Shown piece by piece: positions 28,690-59,501 of a stretch of 61,359 nucleotides of DNA. Origin of the DNA: an uncultured Bacteroidota bacterium (GTDB lineage: Bacteria > Bacteroidota > Bacteroidia > Bacteroidales > GWA2-32-17). The translations under genes and the position numbers were made by a program. The notes under the pieces are model-generated. The model ran no database searches and was not told the DNA's origin. It was given only the letters and a program-made list of their open reading frames with translations. Location of the stretch: NCBI GenBank assembly GCA_903872185.1, contig CAIQJL010000375.1, forward strand, positions 1 to 61,359, read 5' to 3'. The stretch's first letter is position 1; every line of letters begins with the position of its first letter.

Positions 28690-31600
28690 ATGACTGACAA
28701 ATTTTCCATAATTGAGATCAACAGATTATATCAAATAATTGAAAAAGATTTTAGCGAGAGAAAAGAGATATTTGGAATTCCTGAAGAACTTTTTTTCAGA
28801 CCATCAAAAAACGATAATTTTAAAATCTCACGTTATGGGCAAATTATAGAATCACCTATTGGAGTGGCTGCTGGTCCACATTCTCAAATGGCACAAAATA
28901 TAATCTCCGCCTGGCTTTGTGGTGCAAGATATATCGAATTAAAAACGATTCAGACTCTTGATGAAATTAATGTTTCAAAACCCTGTATTGACATGCAGGA
29001 TGAGGGCTATAATTGTGAATGGTCACAGGAACTTAGAATTCATGAAACATTTGAAGAATATTTAAAAGCATGGATACTAATTCATATCTTAAAACACAAA
29101 TTAAACTTTGAAAAAAGCGAAGATATTGGTGTTATTTTTAACATGAGTGCAGGTTACAATATGGAAGGGTTGTTAAAAGAAAATGTACAATGGTTCTTTA
29201 GTAAAATGGAGAATTGTAAACAAGAAAAAGAAAAATATATTGAATTACTAAAACCACTTTATCCGGAAATTGCAAACATTGAAATTCCAAATAGAATTAC
29301 TGACAACATTACTTTATCTACAATGCACGGCTGTCCACCAGAAGAAATTGAAAATATTGGACTATATCTTATTAACGAAAAGAAACTCAACACTACAATT
29401 AAACTAAATCCTACACTACTTGGATCAAAAGAATTAAGAGAAATTTTAAACGCAAAACTTGGTTTTAAAACTGAAGTACCTGATATTGCTTTCGATCACG
29501 ATTTAAAATATGCTGACGCTTTAAAACTTATTAACTCGCTACAGCAAGCTGCTGATAAAAACAACGTTCAGTTTAATCTTAAACTTACTAATACTTTAGA
29601 AAGCATAAATAACAAAAATATCTTCTCTGCCGATGAGAAAATGATGTACATGAGTGGTCGTGCTCTACACCCTATAAGCATAAACCTTGCTAAGAAATTA
29701 CAAAATGAATTTAATGGTAAATTAGATATTTCTTTTTGTGCAGGAGCCGATTGCTTTAACATTTCTGACATTCTAAATTGTGGTCTTCAACCAATAACAA
29801 TTTGTTCGGATATTTTAAAACCTGGTGGATATGGCCGACTTATACAATATATTGAGAATATCAGAGAAAATAAAACTGTAACAAATAAACTTGAATTTCT
29901 TAACAAATATGCAGATGAAGTTATTTCTGAAAAAGCATATATCCGTGACTCATTCCACACACCTGATATTAAAACAAACAGAGAATTAAATTATTTTGAT
30001 TGCATTCACCCTCCTTGTGTCGATACCTGCCCAACAAATCAAGACATACCCGATTATTTATACTTAACCTCAATTGGCGAATTCGAAAAAGCATTTGAAG
30101 TAATACTTAAAAAAAATCCTTTTCCAGCATCTTTAGGAATGGTTTGCGACCATCTTTGTCAATCTAAATGCACAAGAATAAACTATGATGACAGCATACA
30201 AATAAGAGAAGTAAAACGATTTATTGCAGATTATGGGAGCAACGAGAATTTCTTAAAGCCAGCAAAAGAAAACGAATTTAAAGTTTCTATAATTGGTGCA
30301 GGTCCATCAGGTCTAGCTTGTGCATATTTCTTAAGACTAGCTGGATTTAAAGTTAATGTTTACGAGACTAAAAATATTGCAGGCGGAATGGTTGCAGATG
30401 CTATTCCGGCATTCCGCCTTAGAAAACAATCTATAGAAAAAGATATAGAAAGAATTAAAAACCTTGGAGTAAATATTCATTATTCAAACAAAATTGATTC
30501 TTCATTTTTTGAAAATATCCAGAAAGAAAGCGATTTCATTTATCTTGCTACTGGCGCGCAAAAATTTAAAAAACTTGACATTGAAGGCGAAAGTTCAATT
30601 GGTGTTTTAGATGCTTTTAATTTTCTGTATTCTGTTAAAAACGACAAACACATTGAACTCGGAAAAAATGTTATAATAATTGGCGGTGGAAATACTGCAA
30701 TGGATGTTGCACGTACTGCAAACAGACTCATTCATACAAATGGAAAAGTAACTGTTGTATACAGAAGAACGATACACGAAATGCCTGCCGATGCTGAAGA
30801 AATTGCAGCATTAATTGATGAAGGAATAGAAATAATAGAACTATCTGCACCGGAAAAAATAGTTTCAGAGAACGGAAAAACAACAGCATTAATTTGCTCA
30901 AAAATGAAACTAGGAGAACCAGATTCTTCAGGTAGAGCAAAACCAATAAAAATTGAAAACTCAGAATTTACTATTAATGTAGATTCAATTATTCCTGCAT
31001 TAGGACAAGATGTAGACATTGATTTTATAAAACCTGAATTGCTAAAAACAAATCCTAATAGCTACGAAACACAAATTAAAAATATTTTCATTGGTGGCGA
31101 TGCAATGCGAGGTGCTGCAACAATAGTAAAAGCTGTTGGTGATGGTAGAAAGGTAGCTTCTGAAATATTAAATCGTACTGGCATAAATTATAATTTTGAA
31201 CCCGAAAAAGTAAATCGTGGTTTAAAACACAAAGATTATATTATTAAAAAATCTACTCGCAATAAATCAGAACAACTTACAGAATCTGCAATTGAAAACA
31301 GAAAGAATTTTAATATAGTAATTTCTCCACTAACGAAAGAGCAAGCGGTTACTGAAGCCAAACGTTGCTTACTTTGCGATGATGTTTGCAATATATGCGT
31401 AACAGTTTGCCCAAATCGTGCAAATTATAGTTACTTTATTGAACCAAAAAACATAATTATATATAAAGCAATAAAAAGTTGCGAAACAATAAATATTGAA
31501 AAAGCAGGAATATTAAACCTTTCACAAAATACTCAGGTTTTAAATATTGGCGACTTTTGCAACGAATGTGGCAATTGCACAACATTTTGCCCAACAAATG

Positions 31601-31911
31601 GAAAACCATTTAAAGATAAACCTAAATTTTACCTGAGCGAAAAAAGTTTTAAAGAAATTGAAAATGGATTTACTATTAACAAAACACTAAACAATACAGT
31701 TTTATTTCATAAAACATACAATGAAACAAGCTGTCTGTGCTTAGTTGACAATGAATTTGTTTATGAGTCAAAACATGTAAAAGCAACATTTAACAAATCC
31801 GATTTCACAATTAAAAATGTTGAATTCTTAAATGACAATATTGAAGAATTCGAATTCACAGACGCTGCTAATATGTTTGCTTTATTTGATGCTGCAAAAA
31901 ATCTATATTAA
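28690..31911 (+). CDS. ygfK: YgfK-family flavin/Fe-S oxidoreductase (often annotated putative selenate reductase subunit)
   Basis: GVAAGPHSQMAQNI, KPCID..DEGYNCEWSQEL, STMHGCPPEEIE, MYMSGRAL, GltD-like GAGPSG/GGGNTAMD, C-terminal CNICVTVCPNRAN and CNECGNCTTFCP. Confidence 0.92.
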   Translation: MTDKFSIIEINRLYQIIEKDFSERKEIFGIPEELFFRPSKNDNFKISRYGQIIESPIGVAAGPHSQMAQNIISAWLCGARYIELKTIQTLDEINVSKPCIDMQDEGYNCEWSQELRIHETFEEYLKAWILIHILKHKLNFEKSEDIGVIFNMSAGYNMEGLLKENVQWFFSKMENCKQEKEKYIELLKPLYPEIANIEIPNRITDNITLSTMHGCPPEEIENIGLYLINEKKLNTTIKLNPTLLGSKELREILNAKLGFKTEVPDIAFDHDLKYADALKLINSLQQAADKNNVQFNLKLTNTLESINNKNIFSADEKMMYMSGRALHPISINLAKKLQNEFNGKLDISFCAGADCFNISDILNCGLQPITICSDILKPGGYGRLIQYIENIRENKTVTNKLEFLNKYADEVISEKAYIRDSFHTPDIKTNRELNYFDCIHPPCVDTCPTNQDIPDYLYLTSIGEFEKAFEVILKKNPFPASLGMVCDHLCQSKCTRINYDDSIQIREVKRFIADYGSNENFLKPAKENEFKVSIIGAGPSGLACAYFLRLAGFKVNVYETKNIAGGMVADAIPAFRLRKQSIEKDIERIKNLGVNIHYSNKIDSSFFENIQKESDFIYLATGAQKFKKLDIEGESSIGVLDAFNFLYSVKNDKHIELGKNVIIIGGGNTAMDVARTANRLIHTNGKVTVVYRRTIHEMPADAEEIAALIDEGIEIIELSAPEKIVSENGKTTALICSKMKLGEPDSSGRAKPIKIENSEFTINVDSIIPALGQDVDIDFIKPELLKTNPNSYETQIKNIFIGGDAMRGAATIVKAVGDGRKVASEILNRTGINYNFEPEKVNRGLKHKDYIIKKSTRNKSEQLTESAIENRKNFNIVISPLTKEQAVTEAKRCLLCDDVCNICVTVCPNRANYSYFIEPKNIIIYKAIKSCETINIEKAGILNLSQNTQVLNIGDFCNECGNCTTFCPTNGKPFKDKPKFYLSEKSFKEIENGFTINKTLNNTVLFHKTYNETSCLCLVDNEFVYESKHVKATFNKSDFTIKNVEFLNDNIEEFEFTDAANMFALFDAAKNLY

Positions 31912-34236: not shown

Positions 34237-34244
34237 TACTTTTG
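34237..34244 (+). promoter_or_regulatory. -7 element (TACTTTTG) of the PLP-enzyme/xdh/ssnA operon
   Basis: TAnnTTTG match 33 nt upstream of ATG 34278. Confidence 0.55.
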
Positions 34245-34277: not shown

Positions 34278-35756
34278 ATGATAAAGATTGAAAACAAGAT
34301 CGTTAACCACGATATAAGAAAGAAAGCAATTGAGCGTTTACGCGAAAAAGGTATTGTACTTCCTACTTATGCTCAAATGAGAGATCCTCAATTAATTCCT
34401 GAAAAGATTAAAGACAAATTAAAAAATATTGGATTATGGGAACTTAATCCACTTAACCTTTTCCGCATTAACTGGCACAACGAGCCAAAAGAAACAGGTG
34501 GTTTATTTGGTGGCGTAAATTATATTGAAATCCCAAAAGAAATAACAGGAATTGACACGCGCATTGTTCTTATTGTAGGCAAATGGTTTCCTACAGGTGC
34601 ACATAAAGTTGGGGCTGCATATGGTTGCTTAGCTCCAAGAATTATTTCAGGCCAATTTGATCCTACTTATAATAAAGCTGTTTGGCCATCAACAGGAAAT
34701 TATTGTCGTGGTGGTGCTTTCGACTCATATTTAATGGGTTGTACTGCTGTTGCTATTCTACCTGAAGAAATGAGTAAAGAACGTTTTGCTTGGTTAAAAG
34801 ATATTGGTGCTGAAGTAATTGCTACCCATGGCTGCGAATCAAATGTAAAAGAGATTTATGACGCATGCTGGGATATTAGAAAAAACAGAAAAGATTGTAT
34901 TATTTTTAATCAATTCGACGAATTCGGAAATCCTTGCTGGCATTATAATGTAACAGGTTATGCATTAGAGGAAGTTTATAATAAAATTAAAACTCCAAAA
35001 TCAAAATTTGCCGGATATATTTCAGCTACAGGATCTGCAGGAACTATTTCAGCAGGTGATTTCTTAAGAACAAAACATCCACACATTAAAGTTGCTGCAT
35101 CTGAAGCATTACAATGCCCAACTCTTTTAATGAATGGTTTTGGCGGACATAGAATTGAAGGTATTGGCGACAAACATGTTCCATGGGTACATAATGTTAA
35201 GAATACTGATGCAGTTGTTGCTATTGATGATGAAGATTGCATGAGAATTTTCAGACTTTTTAATGAAAAAGAAGGAAAACAATATTTAAAATCAATTGGA
35301 ATTAGTCAAGAAAATATTGATTCACTAGAATTATTGGGCATTTCAGGAATTTCAAACATGCTATCTGCAATTAAAACTGCAAAACATTTTGAAATGACTT
35401 CTGATGATGTTATTATGACAATTGCAACAGATTCAGCAGTTATGTATCAGTCACGTCTTGAAGAATTGGCAGCTGATAAAGGCGCATATTCAAATATTCA
35501 AGCTGTAAAAGATTATGAAAAATGCCTTTTAGGAACAAAGGCTGATTATATAAAAGAGTTGACATATAACGACCGTAAAATGATTCATAATCTGAAATAT
35601 TTTACATGGGTAGAACAACAGGCAAAAGATGTAGAAGATTTAAATCAGTTATGGTACGACAGAGAAATCTGGGATCAAATATTCCATCAGGATGTTAAAC
35701 TTGATGAAATGATAAATGAATTTAACGAAGAAACCGGAGTTCTTAAGAATTTATAA
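34278..35756 (+). CDS. Fold-type II PLP-dependent enzyme (cysteine synthase/TrpB superfamily, extended), function unassigned
   Basis: FPTGAHKVGA (PLP Lys), PSTGNY, NQF, SATGSAGT phosphate loop, HRIEGIGD. Confidence 0.85.
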   Translation: MIKIENKIVNHDIRKKAIERLREKGIVLPTYAQMRDPQLIPEKIKDKLKNIGLWELNPLNLFRINWHNEPKETGGLFGGVNYIEIPKEITGIDTRIVLIVGKWFPTGAHKVGAAYGCLAPRIISGQFDPTYNKAVWPSTGNYCRGGAFDSYLMGCTAVAILPEEMSKERFAWLKDIGAEVIATHGCESNVKEIYDACWDIRKNRKDCIIFNQFDEFGNPCWHYNVTGYALEEVYNKIKTPKSKFAGYISATGSAGTISAGDFLRTKHPHIKVAASEALQCPTLLMNGFGGHRIEGIGDKHVPWVHNVKNTDAVVAIDDEDCMRIFRLFNEKEGKQYLKSIGISQENIDSLELLGISGISNMLSAIKTAKHFEMTSDDVIMTIATDSAVMYQSRLEELAADKGAYSNIQAVKDYEKCLLGTKADYIKELTYNDRKMIHNLKYFTWVEQQAKDVEDLNQLWYDREIWDQIFHQDVKLDEMINEFNEETGVLKNL

Positions 35757-35782
35757 TTTGGCTATCTTATAACCATTTAGCG

Positions 35783-37027
35783 ATGAACAATAAATTCCAT
35801 TTCTTATGTGTTGATTGTGGTAAAATTATAAATTCAACGAAGGTTGAATATTTATGCAATGACTGCGAAAGCAATAATAGCGTATCACAACCACCACAAG
35901 GAGTTTTAAAAACAGAATATAATTTCTCCGAAATTAAATCAAGATTACATGAAGGTATTTTTAACAAATTAGAAAACACAGGCTTTATTGACATATTACC
36001 AATTAAATCAATTAATAGCCTACCTTATTTAAAAGTTGGAAATACACCGTTATATAATGTTACAGAATTAAACAAAACTGAATTAAATTTTAGTTTATTA
36101 CTTAAAGACGATTCTCAGAATCCAACTTTTTCATTTAAAGACAGAGCTTCAGCTATCGTCTCAGCGTATGCAAAAGAAAATAATATTGATACAATTGTTG
36201 CGGCATCAACTGGTAATGCGGGTTCTTCTTTAGCAGGAATTTGTGCTGCGCAAAAACAAAGAGCAATAATTTTTGTTCCGGCGAATGCACCAAAAGCAAA
36301 GCTTACTCAAATAATGATGTATGGAGCTCAAATTGTGCCGGTAAATGGAAATTACGATACAGCTTTTGACTTAAGTATTGAAATTACAAAGAAATACGGT
36401 TGGTATAATCGTAATACTGCATTCAATCCATTAACTATTGAAGGCAAGAAAACTGTTTCTTATGAATTATATTCACAGTTAAATCAATCTTTGCCTGATA
36501 GAATATTTGTACCTGTCGGCGATGGAGTAATAATTTCGGGAGTATACAAAGGCTTTGAAGACTTATTAAAACTTGGAATAATAAAAAAGATACCTACCAT
36601 TGTCGCAGTTCAGGCATTTGGGAGTAGTAATATAATAAACAACCTTAATCGTCAAGAGTTCATTTCAACTCCAAGTAAAACAGTTGCAGATTCAATTTCT
36701 GTTAATATTCCAAGAAATTTCAGAATGTCCAAAAAATATTTGCAAACTTTTGAAGGCGAAAACATATTGGTTAATGATGATGAAATAATTGCAGCCTCAA
36801 AAGTATTAAGTAGCAATACAGGCATTTTTACTGAACCAGCTGCAGCTACAGCATTCGCAGGATTCCTGAGTTATTACAACAATAACAGATTGAAGAAAGA
36901 AAGTAAAAATGTAGTTATACTAACAGGTAGCGGACTAAAAGACTTAAATGCAGTTCAATCAATAATAAATATTCCAAACCCAGTAAATCCGACTATTTCT
37001 GATGTCGAAAGATTTCTAAATTTATAA
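35783..37027 (+). CDS. Threonine synthase-like PLP enzyme with N-terminal Zn ribbon
   Basis: CVDC...CNDC, GNTPL, NPTFSFKDRAS, ASTGNAG, EGKKT, VPVGDG, EPAAA, LTGSGLKD. Confidence 0.87.
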   Translation: MNNKFHFLCVDCGKIINSTKVEYLCNDCESNNSVSQPPQGVLKTEYNFSEIKSRLHEGIFNKLENTGFIDILPIKSINSLPYLKVGNTPLYNVTELNKTELNFSLLLKDDSQNPTFSFKDRASAIVSAYAKENNIDTIVAASTGNAGSSLAGICAAQKQRAIIFVPANAPKAKLTQIMMYGAQIVPVNGNYDTAFDLSIEITKKYGWYNRNTAFNPLTIEGKKTVSYELYSQLNQSLPDRIFVPVGDGVIISGVYKGFEDLLKLGIIKKIPTIVAVQAFGSSNIINNLNRQEFISTPSKTVADSISVNIPRNFRMSKKYLQTFEGENILVNDDEIIAASKVLSSNTGIFTEPAAATAFAGFLSYYNNNRLKKESKNVVILTGSGLKDLNAVQSIINIPNPVNPTISDVERFLNL

Positions 37028-37044
37028 TACATAATGTTAATATT

Positions 37045-39612
37045 ATGATTAATTTCATTCTTAACAAAGAGAATATTAATTACAACGGTAATCCTGAATT
37101 AACGTTGTTAAAGTATTTACGAAATGAATTAGAAATTACTTCTGTAAAAGATGGTTGCTCTGGACAAGCTGCTTGTGGTGCTTGCATGGTTGAAATAAAC
37201 GGAGAAGCAAAACTTTCATGCATTACTCCAATGAATAAAATTCAAGGAACAGAAGTTACAACTATGGAAGGTGTGCCTGAACCCATAAAACAAGTTTTAG
37301 GAAAAGCATTTGTTGAAAAGGGTGCCGTTCAATGCGGATTTTGCACACCAGGATTCTTGATGAGGACAAAAGTTCTTCTTCAGAAAAACCCAACTCCCAC
37401 AAAAGAAGAAATAAAACAGGCACTAACTTTAAATCTTTGTCGTTGTACCGGATACGTCAAAATTATTGAAGCAATTGAAGAAGCAGCAAAATCTTTAACA
37501 AATGGTAAAGGAATTGAATACTCAGACATCTCAGGAAAAGTAGGAACTTCATATCCTAAATATCAGGCATACGAAACTGCAATTGGCAAAAGAGCTTTTG
37601 TTAATGATTTGCATTTTGAAGGAATGCTACATGGTGCTTTAAAATTCAGTGATTATCCTCGCGCAAAAGTTTTAAAAATAGACATTTCGGTAGCATCAAA
37701 AATTAAAGGTGTATTAAAAATATTTACTTCAAAAGATATTCCCGGAGATAAATTTATCGGACTAATATATCAGGATTGGCCTTTAATGATTGGCGAAGGA
37801 GAAATCACAAGATATATTGGTGATGTAATAGCAGGAGTAGTTGCAGAAACTGAAGAAATAGCAAGAGAAGCAGCAAAGAAAATAAATATAAGCTACGAGA
37901 TTCTTGAACCAGTTACAGATCCATACGGAGCATTAAAAGCGAACTCTCCACAAGTTCAACCGAATCATGATAATTTATTAGATAACTGCAAAGTCTATCG
38001 TGGAGGAAATGCAGAAGAAGTATTGAGAAAATCAGATTATATTTCAAATGGAACTTACAATACCCAGCGTATTGAGCACGCATTTTTAGAGACTGAAGGT
38101 GCAGTAGGATTACCAAAAGAAAATGGAATAACATTATACACTAACGGCCAAGGAATATATGTTGACAGAAAGCAAATTTCAAAAATACTAGCACTTCCTG
38201 AAGAAAAAATAAATGTAATACTTATTCCAACAGGTGGTGGCTTTGGGGGTAAAGAAGACATGACAGTTCAAGGTCATACTGCATTATTTACATGGCTACT
38301 AAAAAAACCTGTAAAATTAATTCTTTCAAGAGAAGAGTCATTCAGAATGCATCCTAAACGACATCCTGTTTTTATGGATATTGAAATGGGTTGCGATAAA
38401 AACGGAATGTTAACTGCCGTAAAACTTATGGCCGTTGGTGATTCTGGAGCTTATGCTTCTGTTGGAACAAAAGTCATGGAAAGAGTTGCTGGTCATGCTA
38501 CCGGAGGTTATCATTTCCCATGCGTAAATCTTGAAGCAAAAACTGTATACACTAACAATATCCCAAGCGGTGCTATGCGTGGGTTTGGCGCTAATCAGGT
38601 TTGTTTTGCATTAGAAGGATGTATTGATGAACTTTGTAAACAAGGTGGTTTTGATCGTTGGAAATTTAGATATGATAATGCTTTAACAGAAGACAGAATG
38701 ACCGCTACAGGTCATATATTGAAATCAGGAGTTGGAATTAGAGCAACACTTGATGCACTCAAACCATATTATGATAAAGCAAAATTCAAAGGCTTAGCTT
38801 GCGGAATAAAAAATTCAGGCGTTGGAAATGGCATGGAAGATTCAAGTGATGTTATAATTGAAATAATTTCAGAACAACAAGTAAACATACAACATGGCTG
38901 GACTGAAATGGGGCAAGGCATTCACAATATGGCGATTCAGACGTTACATGAAGAAACAGGAATAAATCCGGAAATAATTGAAGTAGTTGTTGATTCAGCA
39001 GCAGGAATAACAACGGGCATGACAACATCATCTCGTGCAACCGCTTTACTTGGAAATGCAATTATTGATGCTTCAAAACAAATTATAGAAGATCTTAAAT
39101 CAAATAAACTCTCCGAATTAAAAGGTAAAACCTATAAAGGAAATTATACTTGCAACTGGACAACAAAACCAGGTGCAGATGTAAAAGAAATAATAACACA
39201 CTACTCATATGGATACGCATCACAGCTTGTTGTTTTAAATGATAAAGGAGAAATAGACACTGTCTTTGCAGCACATGATGCCGGTAAAATAATGAATCCA
39301 ATAATGTTTGAAGGCCAAATTGAAGGCGCTGTTCATATGGGTGTTGGATATGCTTTGACGGAAGACTTACCAATGAAAGATGGATTTCTTGTATCTACAA
39401 AAATGAGAGATTTAGGAATTTTATCTGCTAAAGAAACACCAAAAATAAAAGTAATTGGTGTTGAAGTTAAAGATTCTGTTGGTCCTTATGGTGCAAAAGG
39501 ACTAGGTGAAATTGGATTAGTACCTACAGCAGCAGCTGTAGCCAATGCACTTTGCGATTTTGACGGGGTTAGAAGATATTCTTTACCAATGAAACGAAAA
39601 AAGAAATGTTAA
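37045..39612 (+). CDS. xdh: Single-chain selenium-dependent xanthine dehydrogenase-type molybdenum hydroxylase (2x[2Fe-2S] + Moco, no FAD domain)
   Basis: KDGCSGQAACGAC, QCGFCTPG, NLCRCTGY, EHAFLE, GGGFGGKED, GAMRGFG, GAKGLGEIG; 855-aa fused layout like clostridial/enterococcal Se-XDH. Se dependence is inferred from family. Confidence 0.88.
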   Translation: MINFILNKENINYNGNPELTLLKYLRNELEITSVKDGCSGQAACGACMVEINGEAKLSCITPMNKIQGTEVTTMEGVPEPIKQVLGKAFVEKGAVQCGFCTPGFLMRTKVLLQKNPTPTKEEIKQALTLNLCRCTGYVKIIEAIEEAAKSLTNGKGIEYSDISGKVGTSYPKYQAYETAIGKRAFVNDLHFEGMLHGALKFSDYPRAKVLKIDISVASKIKGVLKIFTSKDIPGDKFIGLIYQDWPLMIGEGEITRYIGDVIAGVVAETEEIAREAAKKINISYEILEPVTDPYGALKANSPQVQPNHDNLLDNCKVYRGGNAEEVLRKSDYISNGTYNTQRIEHAFLETEGAVGLPKENGITLYTNGQGIYVDRKQISKILALPEEKINVILIPTGGGFGGKEDMTVQGHTALFTWLLKKPVKLILSREESFRMHPKRHPVFMDIEMGCDKNGMLTAVKLMAVGDSGAYASVGTKVMERVAGHATGGYHFPCVNLEAKTVYTNNIPSGAMRGFGANQVCFALEGCIDELCKQGGFDRWKFRYDNALTEDRMTATGHILKSGVGIRATLDALKPYYDKAKFKGLACGIKNSGVGNGMEDSSDVIIEIISEQQVNIQHGWTEMGQGIHNMAIQTLHEETGINPEIIEVVVDSAAGITTGMTTSSRATALLGNAIIDASKQIIEDLKSNKLSELKGKTYKGNYTCNWTTKPGADVKEIITHYSYGYASQLVVLNDKGEIDTVFAAHDAGKIMNPIMFEGQIEGAVHMGVGYALTEDLPMKDGFLVSTKMRDLGILSAKETPKIKVIGVEVKDSVGPYGAKGLGEIGLVPTAAAVANALCDFDGVRRYSLPMKRKKKC

Positions 39613-39761: not shown

Positions 39762-41030
39762 ATGGCTATTTATTTAAAAAACGCAACATTTATTGATTGG
39801 CAAACTTTAGAATTTAAAACCTCTAATATTAAAGTTAATTCAGGAATTAATAATGGTTTTGAATTCATAAATGAAATACCAATTAATCTTAATCAAGAAT
39901 TAATTGATTGCACAGGCAAATATGTTACAAAATCTTTTGTATGCGGACATCATCACATATATTCAGCACTTGCAAGAGGAATGAGTGCGCCTAAAAAGAA
40001 TCCCGAAAATTTTTATGAAATTTTGCAATATGTTTGGTGGACACTAGATAAATGTCTGGATAAAGACATGATTGAAGCGAGTGCATTAACAACTGCAATT
40101 GCTTGTGCAAAAAGCGGAACAACTTTCGTAATTGACCACCATGCTTCACCTTTTGCAGTTGAAGGTTCATTAGAGATTATTGCAAAAGCTTTTGAAAAAG
40201 TTGGTCTCTCCCATTTGTTATGTTACGAAATATCGGATAGAGACGAATTAGAGATTGCAGAAAAAGGACTTTCTGAAACTGAGAATTATTTAAAATATAA
40301 TCAAGGATTAGTAGGTCTTCACGCATCATTCACAGTTTCTGACGATACACTAAAAAAGGCAATTTCAATTGCAGATAAATACAAATCTGGTTTGCATATT
40401 CATGTTGCAGAAGACAAATACGATCAAGAACATTGTGTAAATAATTATAAACAAAGAGTTGTTGAACGATTAAATAATTCAGGAGGATTAAGTTCGTCAA
40501 AAACAATTCTAGGGCATTGTCTTCATTTAAGTGATAACGAAAAAACAATAATTAGAAACTCAAATGCCTGGGTTGTACAAAATAGTGAAAGTAATTTAAA
40601 TAATAACGTTGGTTATTTTGATTCAAGAGGTTTAGGAGAAAATATTATGCTTGGAACAGATGGAATGCATAGTGATATGTTGCGTTCTGCTAAATCAGCA
40701 TTCTATGTTGGACAAGGATTCGATAGCATTGATTATTCAGGTGTTTATAAACGTTTTAGAAATGCTCATAACTATTTAAGTACGAATAATTTTTCAGGAG
40801 ATGGCGACAATAATCTTGTCATTTTAGATTACGACTCTCCAACTGAATTTAATCAGAATAATTTCTTAGGCCATTTTCTTTTTGGTATAGAATCAAAACA
40901 TGTGCAACATGTTATTTCAAATGGGAAATTGATAGTAAAAGACAGATTCATTCAAACAGTCAATGAAAATGACATTTTAAATTCTTCAAAAGAACTTTCA
41001 AAATTACTATGGAAAAAAATGAGTAAATAA
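39762..41030 (+). CDS. ssnA: SsnA-family amidohydrolase
   Basis: CGHHHIYSALARG, F.EIL...WW.LD, IDHHASP, GLHASFT, HIHVAED, GTDG. Confidence 0.88.
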   Translation: MAIYLKNATFIDWQTLEFKTSNIKVNSGINNGFEFINEIPINLNQELIDCTGKYVTKSFVCGHHHIYSALARGMSAPKKNPENFYEILQYVWWTLDKCLDKDMIEASALTTAIACAKSGTTFVIDHHASPFAVEGSLEIIAKAFEKVGLSHLLCYEISDRDELEIAEKGLSETENYLKYNQGLVGLHASFTVSDDTLKKAISIADKYKSGLHIHVAEDKYDQEHCVNNYKQRVVERLNNSGGLSSSKTILGHCLHLSDNEKTIIRNSNAWVVQNSESNLNNNVGYFDSRGLGENIMLGTDGMHSDMLRSAKSAFYVGQGFDSIDYSGVYKRFRNAHNYLSTNNFSGDGDNNLVILDYDSPTEFNQNNFLGHFLFGIESKHVQHVISNGKLIVKDRFIQTVNENDILNSSKELSKLLWKKMSK

Positions 41031-41057: not shown

Positions 41058-41561
41058 ATGAATAAAATAGAGAATGTAATAAAAGCATTAGATTTAATGC
41101 CGCATCCGGAAGGTGGATACTTCAAAGAGACTTATAGAAGTACCGGAGAAATAAAACAAGAAAATCTCAGCTCTGATTTTAACGGAAATAGAAATTATTC
41201 AACTTGTATATACTTTTTGCTAACATCAGATACGTTTTCTGCATTTCATAGAATTAAACAAGATGAAATATGGCATTTTTATGATGGTTCTCCAATAAAT
41301 CTTCATACCATTAGCTCAGAAGGGAAATACTCATTAATTGTAATTGGTAAAGAAATTGAAAAAGGACAGATTCCTCAATATGTAGTACCTGCAGGTGTTT
41401 GGTTTGCAGCAAAAGTTTTAAATAAAAACGATTACAGCTTGTTAGGATGCACTGTTTCACCTGGATTTAATTTTAATGACTTTGAACTTCCTAACAGAAT
41501 TGATTTAATTAACAAATTTCCACAACACACTAATATTATTACAGAATTAACATGGAAATAA
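41058..41561 (+). CDS. Cupin_5 (DUF985/YML079w-like) protein
   Basis: L.PHPEGGYFKETYRS, IYFLL, SAFHRI..DEIWHFY.G, VPAGVWFAA, GCTVSPGF.F.DFEL. Confidence 0.9.
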   Translation: MNKIENVIKALDLMPHPEGGYFKETYRSTGEIKQENLSSDFNGNRNYSTCIYFLLTSDTFSAFHRIKQDEIWHFYDGSPINLHTISSEGKYSLIVIGKEIEKGQIPQYVVPAGVWFAAKVLNKNDYSLLGCTVSPGFNFNDFELPNRIDLINKFPQHTNIITELTWK

Positions 41562-42175
41562 CAATTTTACAAATTATTGGGTACGCAGCTTCAATTATCA
41601 TTGCTGCCTCAATGACAATGAATTCAATAGTAAAATTCAGATGGATAAATCTAGTTGGGGCATCAACTTTCTCAGTTTATGGATTTGTTATTGGAGCATT
41701 CCCTGTGGGCATTTTAAATGGTTTTATTGTTTGCGTTGATATTTACTACTTATATAACATTTATTCAAAAAAAGAAGTTTTCGAAACTCTTGAATTAAGA
41801 CCTGAAAACAGATATCTTATTAGATTTTTAGAATTTCACAATGATGAGATTCAAAAGAATTTTCCAGGGTTTACATATAAACCAGAAATGAATACCATAA
41901 GTTTCTTCACATTAAGAAATATGTCGGTTGCAGGTGTTTTTCTTGCTCATCGAGAAGATGACAACATACTAAAAGTTGGCCTTGACTATGTTATTCCTGA
42001 GTACAGAGATTTTAAAAACGGCAAATACATTTATAGTCGCGTTAAGAATCGCTTTATTGGAGCAGGTTTTGCGAAAGTAATAGCACCTCCATCAAGTGAT
42101 AAGTATGTAAAATATTTGAAAAAACTTAATTTTACAGAAAATGCTGATGGGTTGTATGAAATTAAACTTAAATAG
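41552..42175 (+). CDS. YgjV-like 3-TM membrane domain fused to a soluble, possibly GNAT-like domain
   Basis: IGY.AS....S.TM....FRWINLVG...F..YG; C-terminal LDYVIPEYRDFKNG and YLKKL.F; 10-nt overlap with the cupin gene. Confidence 0.65.
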   Translation: MEITILQIIGYAASIIIAASMTMNSIVKFRWINLVGASTFSVYGFVIGAFPVGILNGFIVCVDIYYLYNIYSKKEVFETLELRPENRYLIRFLEFHNDEIQKNFPGFTYKPEMNTISFFTLRNMSVAGVFLAHREDDNILKVGLDYVIPEYRDFKNGKYIYSRVKNRFIGAGFAKVIAPPSSDKYVKYLKKLNFTENADGLYEIKLK

Positions 42176-42265: not shown

Positions 42266-43636
42266 ATGAGTATACTAATAAAAAACGGAACAGTTGTAAC
42301 TTCAAATAAAACAGAAGTTACAGATATTTTAATTACCGAAAACACAATTGAAGCTATTGGAAATAATCTTACAATAACAGATAGCACAACAATAATTGAT
42401 GCAACCAATAAATTTATTTTTCCTGGTGGCGTTGATGCTCATGTTCATCTTGACTTACCAACTCCTTACGGACCATCATCTGACAATTTTAAAACAGGTA
42501 GTATTGCAGCCATTTATGGTGGAACAACCTCAATAATTGATTTTGTAACACCTTCCAAAAATGAATCATTAATTTCTGCTATTAATAACAGATTAAAAGA
42601 TGCAAAAAACTCCTATATAGATTACGGCTTTCATATGGGAATTACTTCCTGGAATAAAGAAACAGCAAAAGAAATTGAAATATGTTTAATAGATTATGGC
42701 ATAACATCCTTTAAAACATACATGGCCTACAAAGGGACTATTGGCATAAATGCAGAAGAATTACGCAATATAATGCAAGTAGCAGCTGCACATGAATTAA
42801 TAATTACTGTTCATTGTGAAATGGGAGATGAAATAATAAAATTGCAAAAAAAATATATAGACGAATGTAACATTTCACCAAAATACCACGCATTGTCACG
42901 ACCTGCTAGTGTTGAAGCAGAATCGGTAAAACAAGTTGTACAAATAGCCAAAGAAACAGGATGTACAGTATACATAGTTCACACTTCTGCAAAAGAATCT
43001 GTGGAAATTATTGAACAGGCACAAATCAGTGGACAAAAAGTATTTTCTGAAACCTGTCCACAATACCTATTACTAGATGATACTGTATATGACAAAAAAC
43101 TACCTGTTTCATTAAAGTATGTTATCAGTCCACCTATACGATCTATACAAGACCAAACAAGACTGTGGGATGCAATAAACAATAACACTATTCAGTTTTT
43201 AGCAACCGATCATTGTCCATTTAATACAAAAGGTCAAAAAGATAAAGGCAAAAATGATTTTACAAAAATTCCAAATGGAGCTGGCGGAATAGAACACCGC
43301 ATTGAATTACTCTATACATACGGAGTTTTAGAGAATAAAATAACAAGAAATAAATTAGTAGAAATAACATCTACAAATCCTGCAAAGATTTTTGGCATTT
43401 ACCCACAAAAAGGTGAAATTGCAGTTGGCTCAGATGCTGATATAGTTATCTGGAATCCTAAAACTGAAAATATAATATCTGCAAAAACACATCATCAAAA
43501 TTGTGATTCCAACATATACGAAGGATTTAAAATCAAAGGAAAAGCAGAAACAGTAATAGTAAACGGAGAAATAGTATTAGAAAAAGGAAAAATAAAAAAC
43601 AAAATAAAAAAGGGAAAATATTTAAGAAGAAACTAA
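42266..43636 (+). CDS. hydA: Dihydropyrimidinase/hydantoinase (HyuA-like)
   Basis: PGGVDAHVH, GGTTSIIDF, SFKTYMAY (carbamylated Lys), VHCE, ETCPQYL, ATDHCPF, IPNG. Confidence 0.93.
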   Translation: MSILIKNGTVVTSNKTEVTDILITENTIEAIGNNLTITDSTTIIDATNKFIFPGGVDAHVHLDLPTPYGPSSDNFKTGSIAAIYGGTTSIIDFVTPSKNESLISAINNRLKDAKNSYIDYGFHMGITSWNKETAKEIEICLIDYGITSFKTYMAYKGTIGINAEELRNIMQVAAAHELIITVHCEMGDEIIKLQKKYIDECNISPKYHALSRPASVEAESVKQVVQIAKETGCTVYIVHTSAKESVEIIEQAQISGQKVFSETCPQYLLLDDTVYDKKLPVSLKYVISPPIRSIQDQTRLWDAINNNTIQFLATDHCPFNTKGQKDKGKNDFTKIPNGAGGIEHRIELLYTYGVLENKITRNKLVEITSTNPAKIFGIYPQKGEIAVGSDADIVIWNPKTENIISAKTHHQNCDSNIYEGFKIKGKAETVIVNGEIVLEKGKIKNKIKKGKYLRRN

Positions 43637-54340: not shown

Positions 54341-55531
54341 TTATAATATTATTCTTTCTCTTTTTTGATTATATAACTTTTCTAAAATAGCACCAGCATT
54401 TTTAAATTTGTTATTTAGAATCATTGAAGCAATAATATAAGGTTTAAAACCAGCCTCTTTATAAGTTTCAATACGGTATCTTTCAAAAACGGTGTCGGCT
54501 ACTTCGCCCTCTTTGCATGAAACATTAGAGATATCAGCAGGTAAACAATGCATATATAAAGCTTTACCATCTTTGGTAAGTTTCATTTTTTCTTCGGTGC
54601 ATTCCCAATTTTTAAATTTCGCATTATTAGCAAGACATTCCTGCTCAAGCGATTTTAATCCTGCACTATCGTTATTCTGTAAAAGTACAGTTCTGCGTTC
54701 CATAACTTTATATGGTGCCCAGCTCTTTGGATAAACAATATCAGCATTTTTAAATGCATCATCCATTGAGTTTACAACATTAAATTTACCACCTGAATGT
54801 GCCGCATTTTTCTTAGCAATTTCAACAACTTCAGGTATTAGTTCGTAGCCTTCAGGATAAGCTAAATCAACTTCCATTCCCATACGGGTCATTAAACCAA
54901 TAATGCCCTGAGGTACTGATAAAGGTTTGCCATAACTAGGAGAATAAGCCCAGGTCATTGCAATTTTTTTGCCTTTTAAATTCTCAAGTGAACCGAAATA
55001 ATTTTTAAGGTGTAACAAATCAGCCATTGATTGTGTTGGGTGATCAATATCACATTGTAAATTCACAATACCAGGGCGCGAAGGAAGTACACCATTTTTA
55101 AATCCATCATCTAGAGCTTCGCCAACTTCAACCATGTAAGTGTGACCAGCGCCTAAATACATATCATCTCGAATTCCAATAACATCAGTCAAAAATGAAA
55201 TCATATTTGCAGTTTCGCGAACAGTTTCACCATGTGCAATTTGTGATTTACCTTCATCCAAATCCTGAACTTCTAACCCTAAAAGATTACAAGCTGACGC
55301 AAACGAAAACCTAGTTCTTGTTGAGTTATCACGGAAATTAGAAATTGCCAAACCCGAATCAAAACATTTTGCAGAAATATTATTATCACGAAGATGTTTT
55401 AATGCTTCAGCAACTAATAAAGTCTGCTTTAATTCTGCTTCTGTTTTGTCCCATGTTAAAAGAAAATCTTTTTCAAAAAGTCCGGTGTTAAGATTTTTAA
55501 TCTCTGAAATTAATTTGTTGAATTCTGACAT
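54341..55531 (-). CDS. ygeW: Knotted carbamoyltransferase YgeW
   Basis: FRDNSTRTRFSF, HGETVRETANMISF, DHPTQ, WAYSPSYGKPLSVPQG, YPKSW, MHCLPAD. Confidence 0.96.
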   Translation of the reverse strand: MSEFNKLISEIKNLNTGLFEKDFLLTWDKTEAELKQTLLVAEALKHLRDNNISAKCFDSGLAISNFRDNSTRTRFSFASACNLLGLEVQDLDEGKSQIAHGETVRETANMISFLTDVIGIRDDMYLGAGHTYMVEVGEALDDGFKNGVLPSRPGIVNLQCDIDHPTQSMADLLHLKNYFGSLENLKGKKIAMTWAYSPSYGKPLSVPQGIIGLMTRMGMEVDLAYPEGYELIPEVVEIAKKNAAHSGGKFNVVNSMDDAFKNADIVYPKSWAPYKVMERRTVLLQNNDSAGLKSLEQECLANNAKFKNWECTEEKMKLTKDGKALYMHCLPADISNVSCKEGEVADTVFERYRIETYKEAGFKPYIIASMILNNKFKNAGAILEKLYNQKRERIIL

Positions 55532-55773: not shown

Positions 55774-56961
55774 TTAAATCATATACGCATAAGCTGCATA
55801 GAATGCTGAAGCAGCAACAAGATCGCTAACTGGAACCTTTTCATTTGGAGCATGAGCAAGAACTTCATTACCTGGCCCAAAACCAATTGTTGGAATTTTA
55901 TACATTCCATTTGTTGCTATTCCATTAGTAGAAAATGTCCATTTATCAATAAAAGGCTTTTTGTTAAATAAACCTTCAAAAGCCTGAACTCCCGCCTGAA
56001 CAACATGCTCACCTTCTTCAATTTTCCATGTAGGATAATATTTTTCCATTCCGTATTTTAAACCGGTATACGCAAGTTCCTCGTAATACAAAATCTCGAC
56101 TGTTGCATCCATACCTTTTACTATTGCTTCAATTTCAGAAACAGCAGATTCTTTAGTCTCTCCCCATGTTAAACGTCTGTCCAAATGAAACTGAGCATAA
56201 TCAGCAACAGCGCATAACGAAGGACTTCCAGATTTTATTTCGGATATTGTTACAGAACCTTTTCCTAAAAATGGATCGGTTCCTAATCTTTCATTTAATT
56301 TTTCAATTTCAAGTGCAGCACGGGCAGCCATATATATTGCATTTTTTCCTCTTTCTGGTGCACTACCATGACATGAAACACCACGGAATTTTACAACAAT
56401 TTCCATTCTTCCTCTGTGCCCACGATAAATATTGAGGTTAGTTGGTTCTGTACTTATTACAAAATCTGGACGTAATTTTTCTTCCTCTACAATATATTTC
56501 CAGCAAAGGCCATCGCAATCTTCTTCCATAACACTACCCACAACATAAACTGTAAGGTCTTTATCAAAACCAAGTTCTTTTAATATTTTTCCAGATGTTA
56601 CAGCAGCAGCTGGTCCACCTTCCTGATCAACGGTTCCACGACCATGCACAAAACCATCTTTTATTTCCCCTGAAAAAGGATCGAAACTCCAGTTATCAAT
56701 ATTCCCAACATCAACAGTGTCCATGTGTCCGTCAATAGCAAGTATACGTTTTCCATTTCCAATTCTCCCAATTACATTTCCAAGACCATCAATTCGCACC
56801 TCGTCAAAGCCAGCTTCTTCCATCTGTCGTTTAAGTTCCAACTGAACATCTTTCTCGTTCATACTGGTTGATTTTATCTTTATCAGCTTTGATAAATTAT
56901 TGGCAGTATAGTCTTTATACTTTTCTGCAAGTGCATTTATTTTACTAAAAATTTCGTTCAT
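55774..56961 (-). CDS. ygeY: YgeY family M20 metallo-amidohydrolase
   Basis: DGHMDTV, GRGTVDQEG, MEEDCDG, STEPT, RGHRGRME, SCHGSAPERG, WTFSTNG, AHAPNE. Confidence 0.94.
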   Translation of the reverse strand: MNEIFSKINALAEKYKDYTANNLSKLIKIKSTSMNEKDVQLELKRQMEEAGFDEVRIDGLGNVIGRIGNGKRILAIDGHMDTVDVGNIDNWSFDPFSGEIKDGFVHGRGTVDQEGGPAAAVTSGKILKELGFDKDLTVYVVGSVMEEDCDGLCWKYIVEEEKLRPDFVISTEPTNLNIYRGHRGRMEIVVKFRGVSCHGSAPERGKNAIYMAARAALEIEKLNERLGTDPFLGKGSVTISEIKSGSPSLCAVADYAQFHLDRRLTWGETKESAVSEIEAIVKGMDATVEILYYEELAYTGLKYGMEKYYPTWKIEEGEHVVQAGVQAFEGLFNKKPFIDKWTFSTNGIATNGMYKIPTIGFGPGNEVLAHAPNEKVPVSDLVAASAFYAAYAYMI

Positions 56962-57166: not shown

Positions 57167-59494
57167 TTAATTTCTCAATTTGTTTCTTATTTTTTCAGAC
57201 GAAAGCAATATTACCTCATATGTTGCAGGCAAAGTAAAATCAGGCTCAATAGCATGATTTCCAACTGCTGAAATAGCATCTTTTATAGCCAACCATACAG
57301 AAAATGCAAGCATAAACGGTGGTTCACCAACTGCTTTACTTTTTAAAATTGTTCCTGAATTTGGTGCATTTTTTAATAATTCAACTCTGAAATCTTTTGG
57401 TATATCATTTACAGTTGGAATTTTATAAGTATCGGGAGAATGAGTTGTAAGATTTCCATTTTTATCCCATTTCAACTCTTCATTTGTAACCCAACCTACA
57501 CCTTGAATAAATGCCCCTTCAACTTGTCCGATGTCTATTCCCTCATTTATTGAATTACCAACATCATTAAGAATGTCAGTTCGTAACAATTTATATTGTC
57601 CAGTTAAAGAATCTATTTCAACTTCAGAAACTGACATTCCATATGAAAAATAATAGAACGGATTCCCTTGCCCTTTTTCTCTGTCAAAATAAATTCCAGG
57701 TGTTTTGTAATAACCTGTAGAACTTAAGCTGACTTGTTTGATATATGCAGTTTTAATTATTTCGTTAAAAGAGATTTTATTTTGTGGAAATAATTTATCG
57801 AAAATAAAATTATTCTCAAAAATTACATTTTCTTTAAGTATTTTGTTATGAGTAAATTTTCTTTCAAATTCAGAAACGACAACTTCTAGAAGTCTAGATT
57901 TAATAATATCTATGGCATTCTTTACAGCCATCCCGTTTATATCACTTCCCGAAGAAGCTGCAGTTGGTGAAGTATTAGGAACCTTTGAGGTATTTGTTGC
58001 ATTTACTTTTATTCTATCTGGCGAAATACCTAATTCAACAGAAGCTACCTGCAACATTTTAGTATGAAGCCCCTGCCCCATTTCTGTTCCACCATGATTA
58101 ACCAAAACTGTTCCGTCTGTATAAATATTAACCAATGCACCGGCCTGATTTAAAAATGAAGTAGTAAACGAAATACCAAACTTAACAGGAGTAATGGCCA
58201 AACCTTTTTTTACAAATTCGTTCTCGTTGTTATATTTATCAATTTCATTTCTTCGTTTAGAATATTCCGAAGATTTTATAAGTTGGTCATACAATACAAA
58301 TAATCTGTTATTATCTATCTTCTGACCATAAGGAGTAAAATTATTTTTATAAATGTTATAAAAATTCAAAAGTCTGATTTCTGCACTATCTTTTTTCAAG
58401 TAACGTGCAATCATATCAATACAATTTTCAATAACTGCCATTCCCTGTGGTCCACCAAAACCACGATATGCTGTGTTTGATGGAAGATTAGTTTTCCATG
58501 CTCTGCCAATAATCTGAACATCTGGAATAAAATATGAACTGTCTGCATGCAACATTGCCCTTTCAAGTATTGCCATTGAAAGATCTGTTGCAGCGCCAGC
58601 ATCAGTATTTATTTCAACTTTATATGCAAGAATTTTGCCTGAATCATCAAAACCTATTTCGTATTTTGAAAGACAACGATGACGTTTACCTGTCATAATT
58701 TGGTCATCATCTCTGAATAAATGAATTTTCACAGGTCGTTTTGTTGCATTGGCAAGTAATGCAGCCCATGCAGCAACATGATTTCCCTGAGTTTCTTTTC
58801 CACCAAAGCCACCACCCATGCGCTTAACTTCAACCTCAACTTCATTTTTAGAAATGCCTAAAACTTCGGCAACAATAGCCTGTGTTTCGGTAGGGTTCTG
58901 GCTTGAAGCATGAACCATCATTTCTTTTCCCTCACCCGGAACAGCAAGTGCAGTTTGAGTCTCGAGATACCAATGTTCTTGTCCATTTGTTTTTAATTCC
59001 CCTTTAAATGTATGCTGTGAATTTTTTAAAACGACATCAACATTTCCCCTTTCAATCTTTCTTTGAGGAGCTAAAATATTATTTTTTGCAATTGAAGTTT
59101 CAATATCTAAAATTGCATCAAGAGTTTCGTATTCAACTTCGATTAGCTTTTCTGCTTCAATTAATGCTTCTTTATTTTCTGCTGCGATTAAAGCAATTGC
59201 TTGTCCAATAAAATTCACAACTTTCTCAGCAAGACATGGTTCATCATGAACTACAGGTCCCATCTGATTTTCACCAGGAATATCTTTTGCAATTATAACA
59301 GCGTGTACACCTTTTACCTTTAATGCTTTCTTTATATTAATTTTCTTAATTTTTGCGCGGGCATACTTGCTAAATACAACTTTACCTAACAAAAGTTGAC
59401 TACTCATCAGCATATCGTTAATGTATACCGATTCACCGGTTACATGCTTTATTGCGCTATCGTGATGTATCTGATCTGACATCTCTAATTTCAT
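57167..59494 (-). CDS. xdhB: Xanthine dehydrogenase molybdopterin-binding subunit (start at ATG 59494 or 59482)
   Basis: HDSAIKHVTG, GQEHWYLE, RMGGGFGGKETQ, TAYRGFGGPQG, FGISFT..LNQAGAL, GGTEMGQG, SPTAASSGSD, KAVGEPP. Confidence 0.95.
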   Translation of the reverse strand: MKLEMSDQIHHDSAIKHVTGESVYINDMLMSSQLLLGKVVFSKYARAKIKKINIKKALKVKGVHAVIIAKDIPGENQMGPVVHDEPCLAEKVVNFIGQAIALIAAENKEALIEAEKLIEVEYETLDAILDIETSIAKNNILAPQRKIERGNVDVVLKNSQHTFKGELKTNGQEHWYLETQTALAVPGEGKEMMVHASSQNPTETQAIVAEVLGISKNEVEVEVKRMGGGFGGKETQGNHVAAWAALLANATKRPVKIHLFRDDDQIMTGKRHRCLSKYEIGFDDSGKILAYKVEINTDAGAATDLSMAILERAMLHADSSYFIPDVQIIGRAWKTNLPSNTAYRGFGGPQGMAVIENCIDMIARYLKKDSAEIRLLNFYNIYKNNFTPYGQKIDNNRLFVLYDQLIKSSEYSKRRNEIDKYNNENEFVKKGLAITPVKFGISFTTSFLNQAGALVNIYTDGTVLVNHGGTEMGQGLHTKMLQVASVELGISPDRIKVNATNTSKVPNTSPTAASSGSDINGMAVKNAIDIIKSRLLEVVVSEFERKFTHNKILKENVIFENNFIFDKLFPQNKISFNEIIKTAYIKQVSLSSTGYYKTPGIYFDREKGQGNPFYYFSYGMSVSEVEIDSLTGQYKLLRTDILNDVGNSINEGIDIGQVEGAFIQGVGWVTNEELKWDKNGNLTTHSPDTYKIPTVNDIPKDFRVELLKNAPNSGTILKSKAVGEPPFMLAFSVWLAIKDAISAVGNHAIEPDFTLPATYEVILLSSEKIRNKLRN

Positions 59495-59501
59495 TAAATT
59501 C

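Follow-up and report, generated by a model that had tools for sequence, protein, structure and literature searches.

The question raised by this locus

How is the last step of reductive urate degradation carried out in a genome that has no gene for YgeX, the enzyme responsible for it in E. coli? The question is raised by a stretch of 61,359 nucleotides (contig CAIQJL010000375.1 of assembly GCA_903872185.1, referred to here as the window) from an uncultured bacterium of the Bacteroidales, in which two genes for pyridoxal phosphate (PLP) enzymes of fold type II lie directly ahead of the gene for a molybdenum hydroxylase, XdhD. We conclude, with moderate confidence for the two parts taken together, that the second of them, a 414-residue protein related to threonine synthase (ThrC-like), replaces YgeX non-orthologously, and that the first, a 492-residue protein called PLP492 here, is a separate accessory enzyme of the pathway. 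All of the functional assignments that follow are drawn from gene context, distribution and conserved residues.

In the 2,8-dioxopurine pathway, as set out in 2025 (PMC12507026; 10.1101/2025.04.24.650524; PMC12990295), XdhD converts urate to 2,8-dioxopurine, YgfK reduces this, and SsnA and HyuA open the rings; two ureido groups are then removed by YgeW and YgeY to give 2,3-diaminopropionate (DAP), from which YgeX forms pyruvate. Judged by its sequence, the window carries a 2,8-dioxopurine (anaerobic or reductive urate) cluster. This has XdhD, YgfK, SsnA, HyuA, YgeW and YgeY in common with the published clusters of E. coli, C. sporogenes and C. difficile, and differs from them by the lack of YgeX and the presence of two further PLP genes; nor was a YgfM seen in the window. 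The genes concerned are as follows, with bit scores and the cut-offs of the curated families.

28690..31911, + strand: YgfK, a flavo-iron-sulfur enzyme of the 2,8-dioxopurine reductase type (TIGR03315, 921.4 bits, cut-off 835.3)
34278..35756, + strand: PLP492 (P0001), a CysK/CBS-like fold-type II PLP enzyme of 492 residues
35783..37027, + strand: the ThrC-like zinc-ribbon PLP enzyme (P0002), 414 residues, proposed to be a diaminopropionate ammonia-lyase replacing YgeX
37045..39612, + strand: an XdhD-type selenium-dependent molybdenum hydroxylase of 855 residues with N-terminal 2Fe-2S domains (TIGR03311, 885.3 bits, cut-off 830.45; Pfam MoCoBD_1/2 and Fer2_2)
39762..41030, + strand: an SsnA-like amidohydrolase (best matches NF005540, 377.5 bits, cut-off 444, and TIGR03314, 336.3 bits, cut-off 455.5)
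42266..43636, + strand: a HyuA-type D-hydantoinase (TIGR02033, 540.7 bits, cut-off 393.25)
54341..55531, - strand: YgeW, a knotted carbamoyltransferase (TIGR03316, 671.5 bits, cut-off 500; Pfam OTCace_N and OTCace)
55774..56961, - strand: YgeY, an M20 hydrolase (TIGR03526, 510.4 bits, cut-off 321.5; Pfam Peptidase_M20)

A preliminary description of this DNA, made from the letters alone, had reported a 492-residue fold-II PLP protein with the motif TGAHK and a zinc-ribbon threonine-synthase-like protein with the motif FSFKDR, the two genes being 26 nt apart and the second 17 nt ahead of the hydroxylase gene; the coordinates of the open reading frames (ORFs), the motifs and the matches to PALP and TIGR03311 all agree with this. 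It was also right that thrA and thrB are not nearby, neither being present among the annotated ORFs of the window, and that neither protein resembles diaminopropionate ammonia-lyase (DAPAL), the activity of YgeX. With the YgeX model TIGR03528 (cut-off 532.25) the ThrC-like protein reaches 37 bits, and PLP492 scores 15.8 bits on the DAPAL model NF006058 (cut-off 276).

The replacement of YgeX that was proposed there presupposes a genome with no bona fide ygeX, and none was found in this one, which has a marker completeness of 100% and is assembled in 407 contigs. The best TIGR03528 score in the genome is the 37 bits reached by the ThrC-like protein and by a gene on contig C352 which is IlvA, and a tblastn search with the DAPAL of a sister genome from the same order matched IlvA and one CysK-like gene and nothing else, with identities of 25-27%. 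The genes ygeW, ygeY, hyuA, ssnA, ygfK and xdhD are thus found in a genome without ygeX; that for carbamate kinase is on a different contig.

The ThrC-like protein alternates with DAPAL in one slot

DAPAL is present in other genomes of the order. Six DAPAL-like ORFs were scored; with 411-519 bits, all of them are over the NF006058 cut-off of 276, and none reaches the stricter cut-off of TIGR03528. YgeX or DAPAL (E. coli; NF006058, TIGR03528, TIGR01747) and the ThrC-like protein are both PLP enzymes of fold type II, and the YgeX orthologues of sister genomes occupy the position of the ThrC-like gene, after PLP492 and before xdhD. What distinguishes the ThrC-like protein is an N-terminal ribbon of four cysteines and its apparent descent from threonine synthases, its DAP activity being putative.

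Public loci were collected with PLP492 as the query, using one genome per species. This gave at least 590 stretches with relatives, from which the best 80 were taken, many of them short. All 80 contain PLP492, with ThrC-like in 50, YgfK in 48, XdhD in 47, SsnA in 35, HyuA in 21, a 207-residue protein discussed below in 18, YgeW in 6 and YgeY in 4. Of the 69 loci that are evaluable for the gene directly 5' of PLP492, 39 have ygfK there. On the 3' side 63 loci are evaluable: in 39 the adjacent gene is ThrC-like, in a further 9 ThrC-like follows within 2.5 kb, and in 4 the adjacent gene is DAPAL. The pairing of the two PLP genes is not due to chance, the same order being seen in dozens of other genomes.

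The loci with DAPAL show the same arrangement. It stands between PLP492 and XdhD in four of them (L018, L020, L023 and L036) and immediately before XdhD in genomes G296 and G396. In L104 (genome G279) it directly follows PLP492, and is itself followed directly, in the usual xdhD position, by a 491-residue ORF (8056-9528, + strand) which falls into no family and has only a weak match to a capsid protein model (E 1.4e-4, below the cut-off).

The distribution of the genes was then profiled over 401 genomes, all from the order of the window, with thresholds of E ≤1e-50 for PLP492, ≤1e-60 for ThrC-like and ≤1e-40 for DAPAL. PLP492 is carried by 101 of the genomes, ThrC-like by 95, DAPAL by 11 and SsnA by 104. 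The last figure is for E ≤1e-80, which defines the SsnA-positive genomes; at E ≤1e-60 there are 123. The scores are bimodal (at least 275.8 bits as against at most 253.5), and the threshold leaves out 19 genomes, including G155, with a score of 235 bits for a gene next to PLP492, and G357, with a truncated match.

Within the 104 SsnA-positive genomes, 91 have only ThrC-like, 6 only DAPAL, 1 (G107) both and 6 neither. The anti-correlation with ygeX that would be expected of a replacement is therefore seen for the ThrC-like protein. For PLP492, for which it had been proposed as well, it is not: PLP492 is present in 97 of the 104 SsnA-positive genomes and in 5 of the 11 DAPAL-positive ones. Looked at from the other side, 92 of the 95 carriers of ThrC-like and 97 of the 101 carriers of PLP492 are SsnA-positive. 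The two occur together in 91 genomes, PLP492 without ThrC-like in 10 (5 of these with DAPAL) and ThrC-like without PLP492 in 4. Two families, f10 and f80, each hold both the ThrC-like and the DAPAL type of cluster. YgeY and YgeW were over the cut-off in all five genomes inspected, three of the ThrC-like type and two of the DAPAL type, and the two types of cluster therefore differ only in the last enzyme.

The active site of the ThrC-like protein

The ThrC-like protein has a ribbon of the form CxxC...CxxC (C9, C12, C25 and C28), the lysine motif FSFKDR and a PALP match of 227.7 bits. Its best matches in the PDB are the short-type threonine synthases 6cgq, 2zsj, 2d1f and 1uim (E 3.9e-50 to 9.9e-41), and it is below the cut-offs of five specific threonine synthase families: NF006050 (214.7 bits, cut-off 303), NF004170 (212.7, 421), NF005035 (189.6, 301), NF006205 (176.3, 358) and NF004996 (145.7, 266). 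These matches point to descent of the family from short-type threonine synthases.

The protein was compared with three solved threonine synthases for which alignments were available, and residues were counted over 120 ThrC-like orthologues. The Schiff-base motif SFKDR and the STGN loop are common to both groups. The differences, with the solved enzymes given first, are STGNTSA to STGNAGS, N-S to N-T-A, NPyRxEGQKT to NPLTIEGKKT, GNAGN to GDGVI and AtAIrIgnP to ADSISVDIP; the ThrC-like protein also has the added zinc ribbon, and it is encoded in a purine-catabolic cluster without thrA or thrB. At the positions where the three solved enzymes have Thr, Ser, Arg and Asn, the ThrC-like family thus has A146, A213 or T212, T218 and D247. 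These replacements are almost invariant (A146 in 120/120 orthologues, NT at 211-212 in 120/120, T218 and D247 in 119/120 each), as are the four ribbon cysteines and K119 (120/120 for both). The family has also gained two acidic residues, D303 and D308.

We take the four lost residues, namely the Thr of STGNT, the Ser of NS, the Arg of NPxR and the Asn of GNAGN, to be the pocket for the phosphate of O-phosphohomoserine, as in the T. thermophilus enzyme. The loss of an arginine and the gain of an aspartate would fit a switch from an anionic to a cationic leaving group.

Since the ThrC-like protein alternates with DAPAL in the same slot and has lost these four residues of threonine synthase, it is likely to be the replacement of YgeX. 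The mechanism that we propose is as follows. YgfK, XdhD, SsnA, HyuA, YgeW and YgeY would carry urate to DAP as in the published pathway; DAP would be bound by the ThrC-like enzyme as an external aldimine on Lys119, and beta-elimination of its 3-amino group would give aminoacrylate, to be hydrolysed to pyruvate and ammonia. The presumed phosphate pocket (Thr, Ser, Arg, Asn), remade as Ala146, Ala213/Thr212, Thr218 and Asp247, would suit the cationic ammonium leaving group. It is worth adding that threonine synthases are reported to have a beta-eliminating deaminase side activity, and a divergent ThrC to be a threonine deaminase (PMC12172450).

PLP492 is a separate enzyme

PLP492 contains the lysine motif PTGAHKVG and matches PALP weakly over residues 105-333 (54.8 bits). 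Among curated families it scores highest on cysK, with 99.7 bits, far under the cut-off of 350.95, and with 492 residues it is much longer than CysK or CysM (about 300). The true CysK of the genome is encoded elsewhere, on contig C229, with 474.5 bits against the same cut-off.

The AlphaFold2 model of PLP492 has a pLDDT of 94.9. In a Foldseek search the best matches of the core were beta-cyanoalanine synthase, CysK, CBS and O-ureido-L-serine synthase (3x43, 3x44), at about 22% identity; for 3vc3 the E-value was 8.9e-19 and the TM-score to the target 0.85, the range over the matches being 0.79-0.88. PLP492 shares the core fold with this clade and differs from it by about 80 extra N-terminal and 105 extra C-terminal residues, which the model shows as additional helical parts (approximately residues 1-80 and 387-492) and for which Foldseek gave no structural match. 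A further difference is GIGDKHVPW in place of the CysK-type GIGAGFIP of an aligned plant enzyme. The Schiff-base lysine, K110, is conserved in every one of 24 aligned relatives, and the PLP- and carboxylate-binding loops are retained (STGN and GSAGT, together with the Lys of GAHKVG). As these features are kept, PLP492 is probably catalytically active, in beta-elimination or beta-replacement.

The family is large and strongly conserved, with at least 330 cluster representatives in a library clustered at 50% identity (E ≤1e-30). Among public sequences, the best 120 relatives share 73-100% identity with PLP492, and one of them is from another candidate phylum. No curated family covers the relatives, and their source names are only 'cysteine synthase' or 'PLP-dependent enzyme'. 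The family of OrtB, the aminoketopentanoate thiolase, was not matched by PLP492 (E ≤10) or by 13 relatives (E ≤1e-25) in a library that may lack an OrtB model. One divergent full-length relative (P0271, 461 residues, 36% identity) has Gln in place of the Schiff-base lysine (GSYQVG) and may be a non-catalytic paralogue. Longer relatives were considered as a lead to fusions; they carry an unrelated ABC ATPase, HerA, metallo-beta-lactamase or CbiA, and in one case the start of a second PALP domain, and these extra domains look like chimeric or read-through gene calls.

PLP492 lies directly beside DAPAL in at least six loci (L018, L020, L023, L036, L042 and L104). Since it adjoins a bona fide DAPAL, the earlier proposal that both PLP enzymes replace YgeX fails as written: it is supported for the ThrC-like protein, which alternates with DAPAL in the slot, and falls for PLP492. 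The clear conclusion is that PLP492 serves the pathway as an accessory enzyme in its own right, is conserved in more than one phylum and accompanies either terminal lyase. In L042, from the Desulfobacteraceae, a YgeY-like gene is found with PLP492-DAPAL-TRAP transporter, in L021 the order is YgeY-YgeW-PLP492, and in L035, from the Spirochaetota, it is DAPAL-XdhD-SsnA-PLP492. Given that it is paired with either lyase, and that it adjoins YgeY, YgeW and DAPAL where the redox genes are missing, we place PLP492 at the terminal, diaminopropionate end of the pathway. A role in selenium or molybdenum cofactor chemistry was set aside, with no search made for yqeB, yqeC or selD, since L021 (with YgeY and YgeW) and L042 carry PLP492 with XdhD not in reach. 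As to the reaction, our suggestion, made with low confidence, is a beta-elimination or beta-replacement on a 3-substituted alanine such as DAP or 2-amino-3-ureidopropionate; PLP492 may take an enantiomer or regio-isomer that the terminal lyase refuses.

PLP492 is not strictly required, as G318 and G396 have SsnA and DAPAL without it. In G296 and G155 it is encoded outside the cluster yet among purine genes, beside purE and a phosphoribosyltransferase in one of them and an amidohydrolase and a purine nucleoside phosphorylase in the other.

A bolder form of these proposals would be that a threonine synthase descendant has become a DAP ammonia-lyase by way of an ammonium pocket, and that PLP492 is in addition an overlooked ninth enzyme of reductive urate degradation, conserved across phyla; we regard this combination as tentative, and as rather improbable in its entirety. 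Candidate reactions would then be beta-elimination of urea from 2-amino-3-ureidopropionate or the handling of the other enantiomer or a regio-isomer, and the step would be one for which the E. coli pathway, as reconstituted, has no need.

Evidence against this assignment

A number of observations weigh against the ThrC-like protein as the replacement of YgeX and PLP492 as its independent partner, and they are brought together here. On the tree of PLP492, the label ThrC-like or DAPAL needs only three changes, one of them forced by well-supported branches; the genomes are kin, and kinship therefore limits the weight of the profile counts. Among the SsnA-positive genomes, PLP492 is present in 89 of the 92 with ThrC-like and in 4 of the 7 with DAPAL, which leaves room for a function shared by the two enzymes. 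The SsnA homologue of the window is under both curated cut-offs, though it is the best match and syntenic. The identity of the lost residues as a phosphate pocket is presumed.

The remaining points concern the possibility that the ThrC-like protein is the threonine synthase of the cell. It passes the general thrC model TIGR00260 (175 bits, cut-off 167.1), and it is the only thrC-type match in its own genome and in three single-contig genomes (G074, G106 and G260). Canonical ThrC, taken as at least 227 bits on TIGR00260, which is a clearly separate score class, was counted in a sample of 201 genomes (G000-G200): it is present in 13 of 46 carriers of ThrC-like and in 79 of 155 other genomes (Fisher p 0.007, kinship being ignored). 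Because canonical ThrC is rarer where ThrC-like is present, the latter may have a retained or dual threonine synthase activity.

It should be noted that the two coexist in the 13 genomes, and that neither of the DAPAL-type genomes G296 and G396 has a thrC-type match at E ≤1e-20, so these lineages often lack ThrC in any case. Neither known type of homoserine kinase turned up in the genome of the window (no match to TIGR00191, best score on TIGR02535 25 bits) or in any of the three single-contig genomes. The absence of thrB is weak evidence and no proof of auxotrophy, since thrB is missing in 8% of prototrophs and unknown kinases exist, according to the GapMind 2026 study (PMC13759103).

Two side observations may be recorded. 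Canonical threonine synthase was found in only 92 of the 201 genomes; members of the order must often either be auxotrophic for threonine or make it by a route not yet recognised. In G296 (L115, 7206-9018) and G396 (L116, 7976-9765) a GHMP homoserine kinase over the cut-off is paired with a DapA-like aldolase, which is an odd pairing.

Alternative explanations

The alternative that survives best, which we nevertheless consider fairly unlikely, is that both PLP enzymes together supply the function of YgeX, either by dividing D- and L-DAP between them or by PLP492 racemising or otherwise preparing the substrate for a stereospecific ThrC-like lyase. The bias of PLP492 towards genomes with ThrC-like (89/92 as against 4/7) and the adjacency of the two genes in 39 of 63 evaluable loci would be explained in this way. 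The stereochemistry would leave a place for it too, in that the published intermediate is R (D) and the YgeX of E. coli takes both isomers (10.1101/2025.04.24.650524; PMC12507026). The six loci in which PLP492 lies beside a bona fide DAPAL, together with L035, in which it is clustered with DAPAL, speak against it: since PLP492 adjoins DAPAL, it must have a function even in the presence of YgeX. In addition, we know of no CysK-type racemase.

A second alternative, which we hold to be unlikely, exchanges the roles, PLP492 degrading DAP or eliminating urea from 2-amino-3-ureidopropionate while the ThrC-like protein does something else. PLP492 does track the pathway most tightly (97 of 104 SsnA-positive genomes), and it lies next to YgeY and YgeW in L021 and next to a YgeY-like gene and DAPAL, without XdhD, in L042; the CysK family carries out beta-elimination and beta-replacement, and O-ureido-L-serine synthase is among the Foldseek matches. 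Were PLP492 the lyase, however, many genomes would be expected to have it with neither ThrC-like nor DAPAL, and there are only 5 among 101, 3 of which are under 90% complete. The slot-for-slot alternation of ThrC-like and DAPAL would be left unexplained, and YgeY is retained.

The least probable alternative, and in our view a very improbable one, is that the two are housekeeping enzymes, a threonine and a cysteine synthase that merely stand beside the xdh genes; the public names, the TIGR00260 score, the want of another thrC-type gene in this genome and three complete relatives and the lower frequency of canonical ThrC among carriers would all suit it, and are outweighed by the SsnA-positive genomes among the carriers (92/95 and 97/101) with a conserved order inside the cluster, the 13 of 46 genomes with both ThrC-like and canonical ThrC, the missing homoserine kinases, the replacement of the presumed phosphate-pocket residues in 119-120 of 120 orthologues, and the true CysK elsewhere in the genome (474.5 bits, against 99.7 for PLP492).

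Relation to the published pathway

The preferred reading, a ThrC-like replacement of YgeX accompanied by PLP492, describes a new variant within the known reductive urate pathway and not a new kind of system, since other exchanges of pathway enzymes have already been described in C. difficile, where UacX stands in for YgfK and UacY for YgeW and YqeA (PMC12507026). The network of SsnA in the same paper covers six phyla, Bacteroidota not being among them, and marks 'YgeX' by the generic domain PF00291, which would not separate the enzymes discussed here. Among gut isolates, urate consumption was described as 'notably absent in Bacteroidetes' in another study (10.1101/2022.07.24.501321). The closest public records are from Bacteroidales or Bacteroidetes, and the variant occurs in the order of the window. 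In the accessible text of the two pathway papers and a commentary (PMC12507026; 10.1101/2025.04.24.650524; PMC12990295) there is no mention of Bacteroid*, threonine synthase or cysteine synthase. No printed report of a YgeX-less variant was found in the literature searched; the supplements of two bioRxiv preprints may show related clusters.

The pathway was elucidated as recently as 2025 and is under development for urate-lowering probiotics, and the variant is widespread, the SsnA cluster being present in roughly one in four of the genomes sampled from the order (104/401). Because the variant has no YgeX, surveys that require all of the published genes could miss it or rank it down. The names 'threonine synthase' and 'cysteine synthase' given to the two genes, which are routine mislabelling, can distort predictions of amino acid prototrophy. 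If our reading of the ThrC-like protein is true, it offers a clear-cut example of non-orthologous displacement, one whose rationale can be read from the active site. The PLP492 family is a concrete candidate for an unrecognised step, and bears on the disputed order and stereochemistry of ureido cleavage.

Other features of the window

The window has a G+C content of about 30%. Its further features near the cluster are these.

32054-33973, - strand: a PKD/P-domain surface protein sorted by the type IX secretion system (T9SS), between ygfK and the PLP492 gene
34237..34244, + strand: a candidate promoter box, TACTTTTG, read from the sequence, 34 nt 5' of the ATG of the PLP492 gene
41058..41561, + strand: a Cupin_5 (DUF985) protein (PF06172, 186.6 bits), which accompanies the cluster in 1 of the 80 loci
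41552..42175, + strand: a 207-residue YgjV-like inner-membrane protein, identified by ESM Atlas features
57167..60953, - strand: a second, conventional xanthine dehydrogenase (XDH), with a molybdenum subunit of 805 residues (57167-59584) and a FAD/2Fe-2S subunit of 483 residues (59502-60953)

The T9SS surface protein appears to have been inserted locally, interrupting the operon, given that ygfK directly precedes the PLP492 gene in 39 of the 69 evaluable loci. The promoter box presumably corresponds to the -7 consensus of Bacteroidetes, TAnnTTTG, the match being by eye. A scan for sigma-70 promoters gave results at the level of chance (79 found, 80.1 expected), with 6 terminators against 6.9. 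Rfam identified no riboswitch in the window, its sole match being a tRNA-Leu. Just 5' of ygfK (25542-28563, + strand) there are genes for an SHMT and a TauE-type exporter and a family-less ORF of 294 residues, which are conserved with the cluster in none of the 80 loci.

The 207-residue ORF shares 10 nt with the end of the cupin gene and has no match in Pfam or NCBIfam. Its ESM Atlas features match clusters labelled 'inner membrane protein' and 'YgjV family' at 0.98-0.99, and the Imp-YgjV Pfam family is found on 16% of the members of the cluster matched. It lies between SsnA and HyuA in 18 of the 80 loci, and may be the substrate transporter of the cluster.

The conventional XDH has the Pfam domains MoCoBD_1/2 and Ald_Xan_dh_C in one subunit and FAD_binding_5, CO_deh_flav_C and Fer2_2 in the other. 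Here it adjoins ygeY and ygeW; elsewhere its homologues are found 5' of ygfK (for example in L019, L027, L030, L054, L081 and L087), a position which suggests a feeder step from xanthine to urate.

A divergent cluster was found in L094 (genome G274, 1-19001). It contains HyuA-like, SsnA-like (35%), YgfK, YgeY, OTC-like, ThrC-like (41%) and PLP492 (57%) genes, together with a MobA-like gene, a three-subunit XDH, a DUF364 gene, XdhC and one further amidohydrolase, and may be a second version of the pathway.

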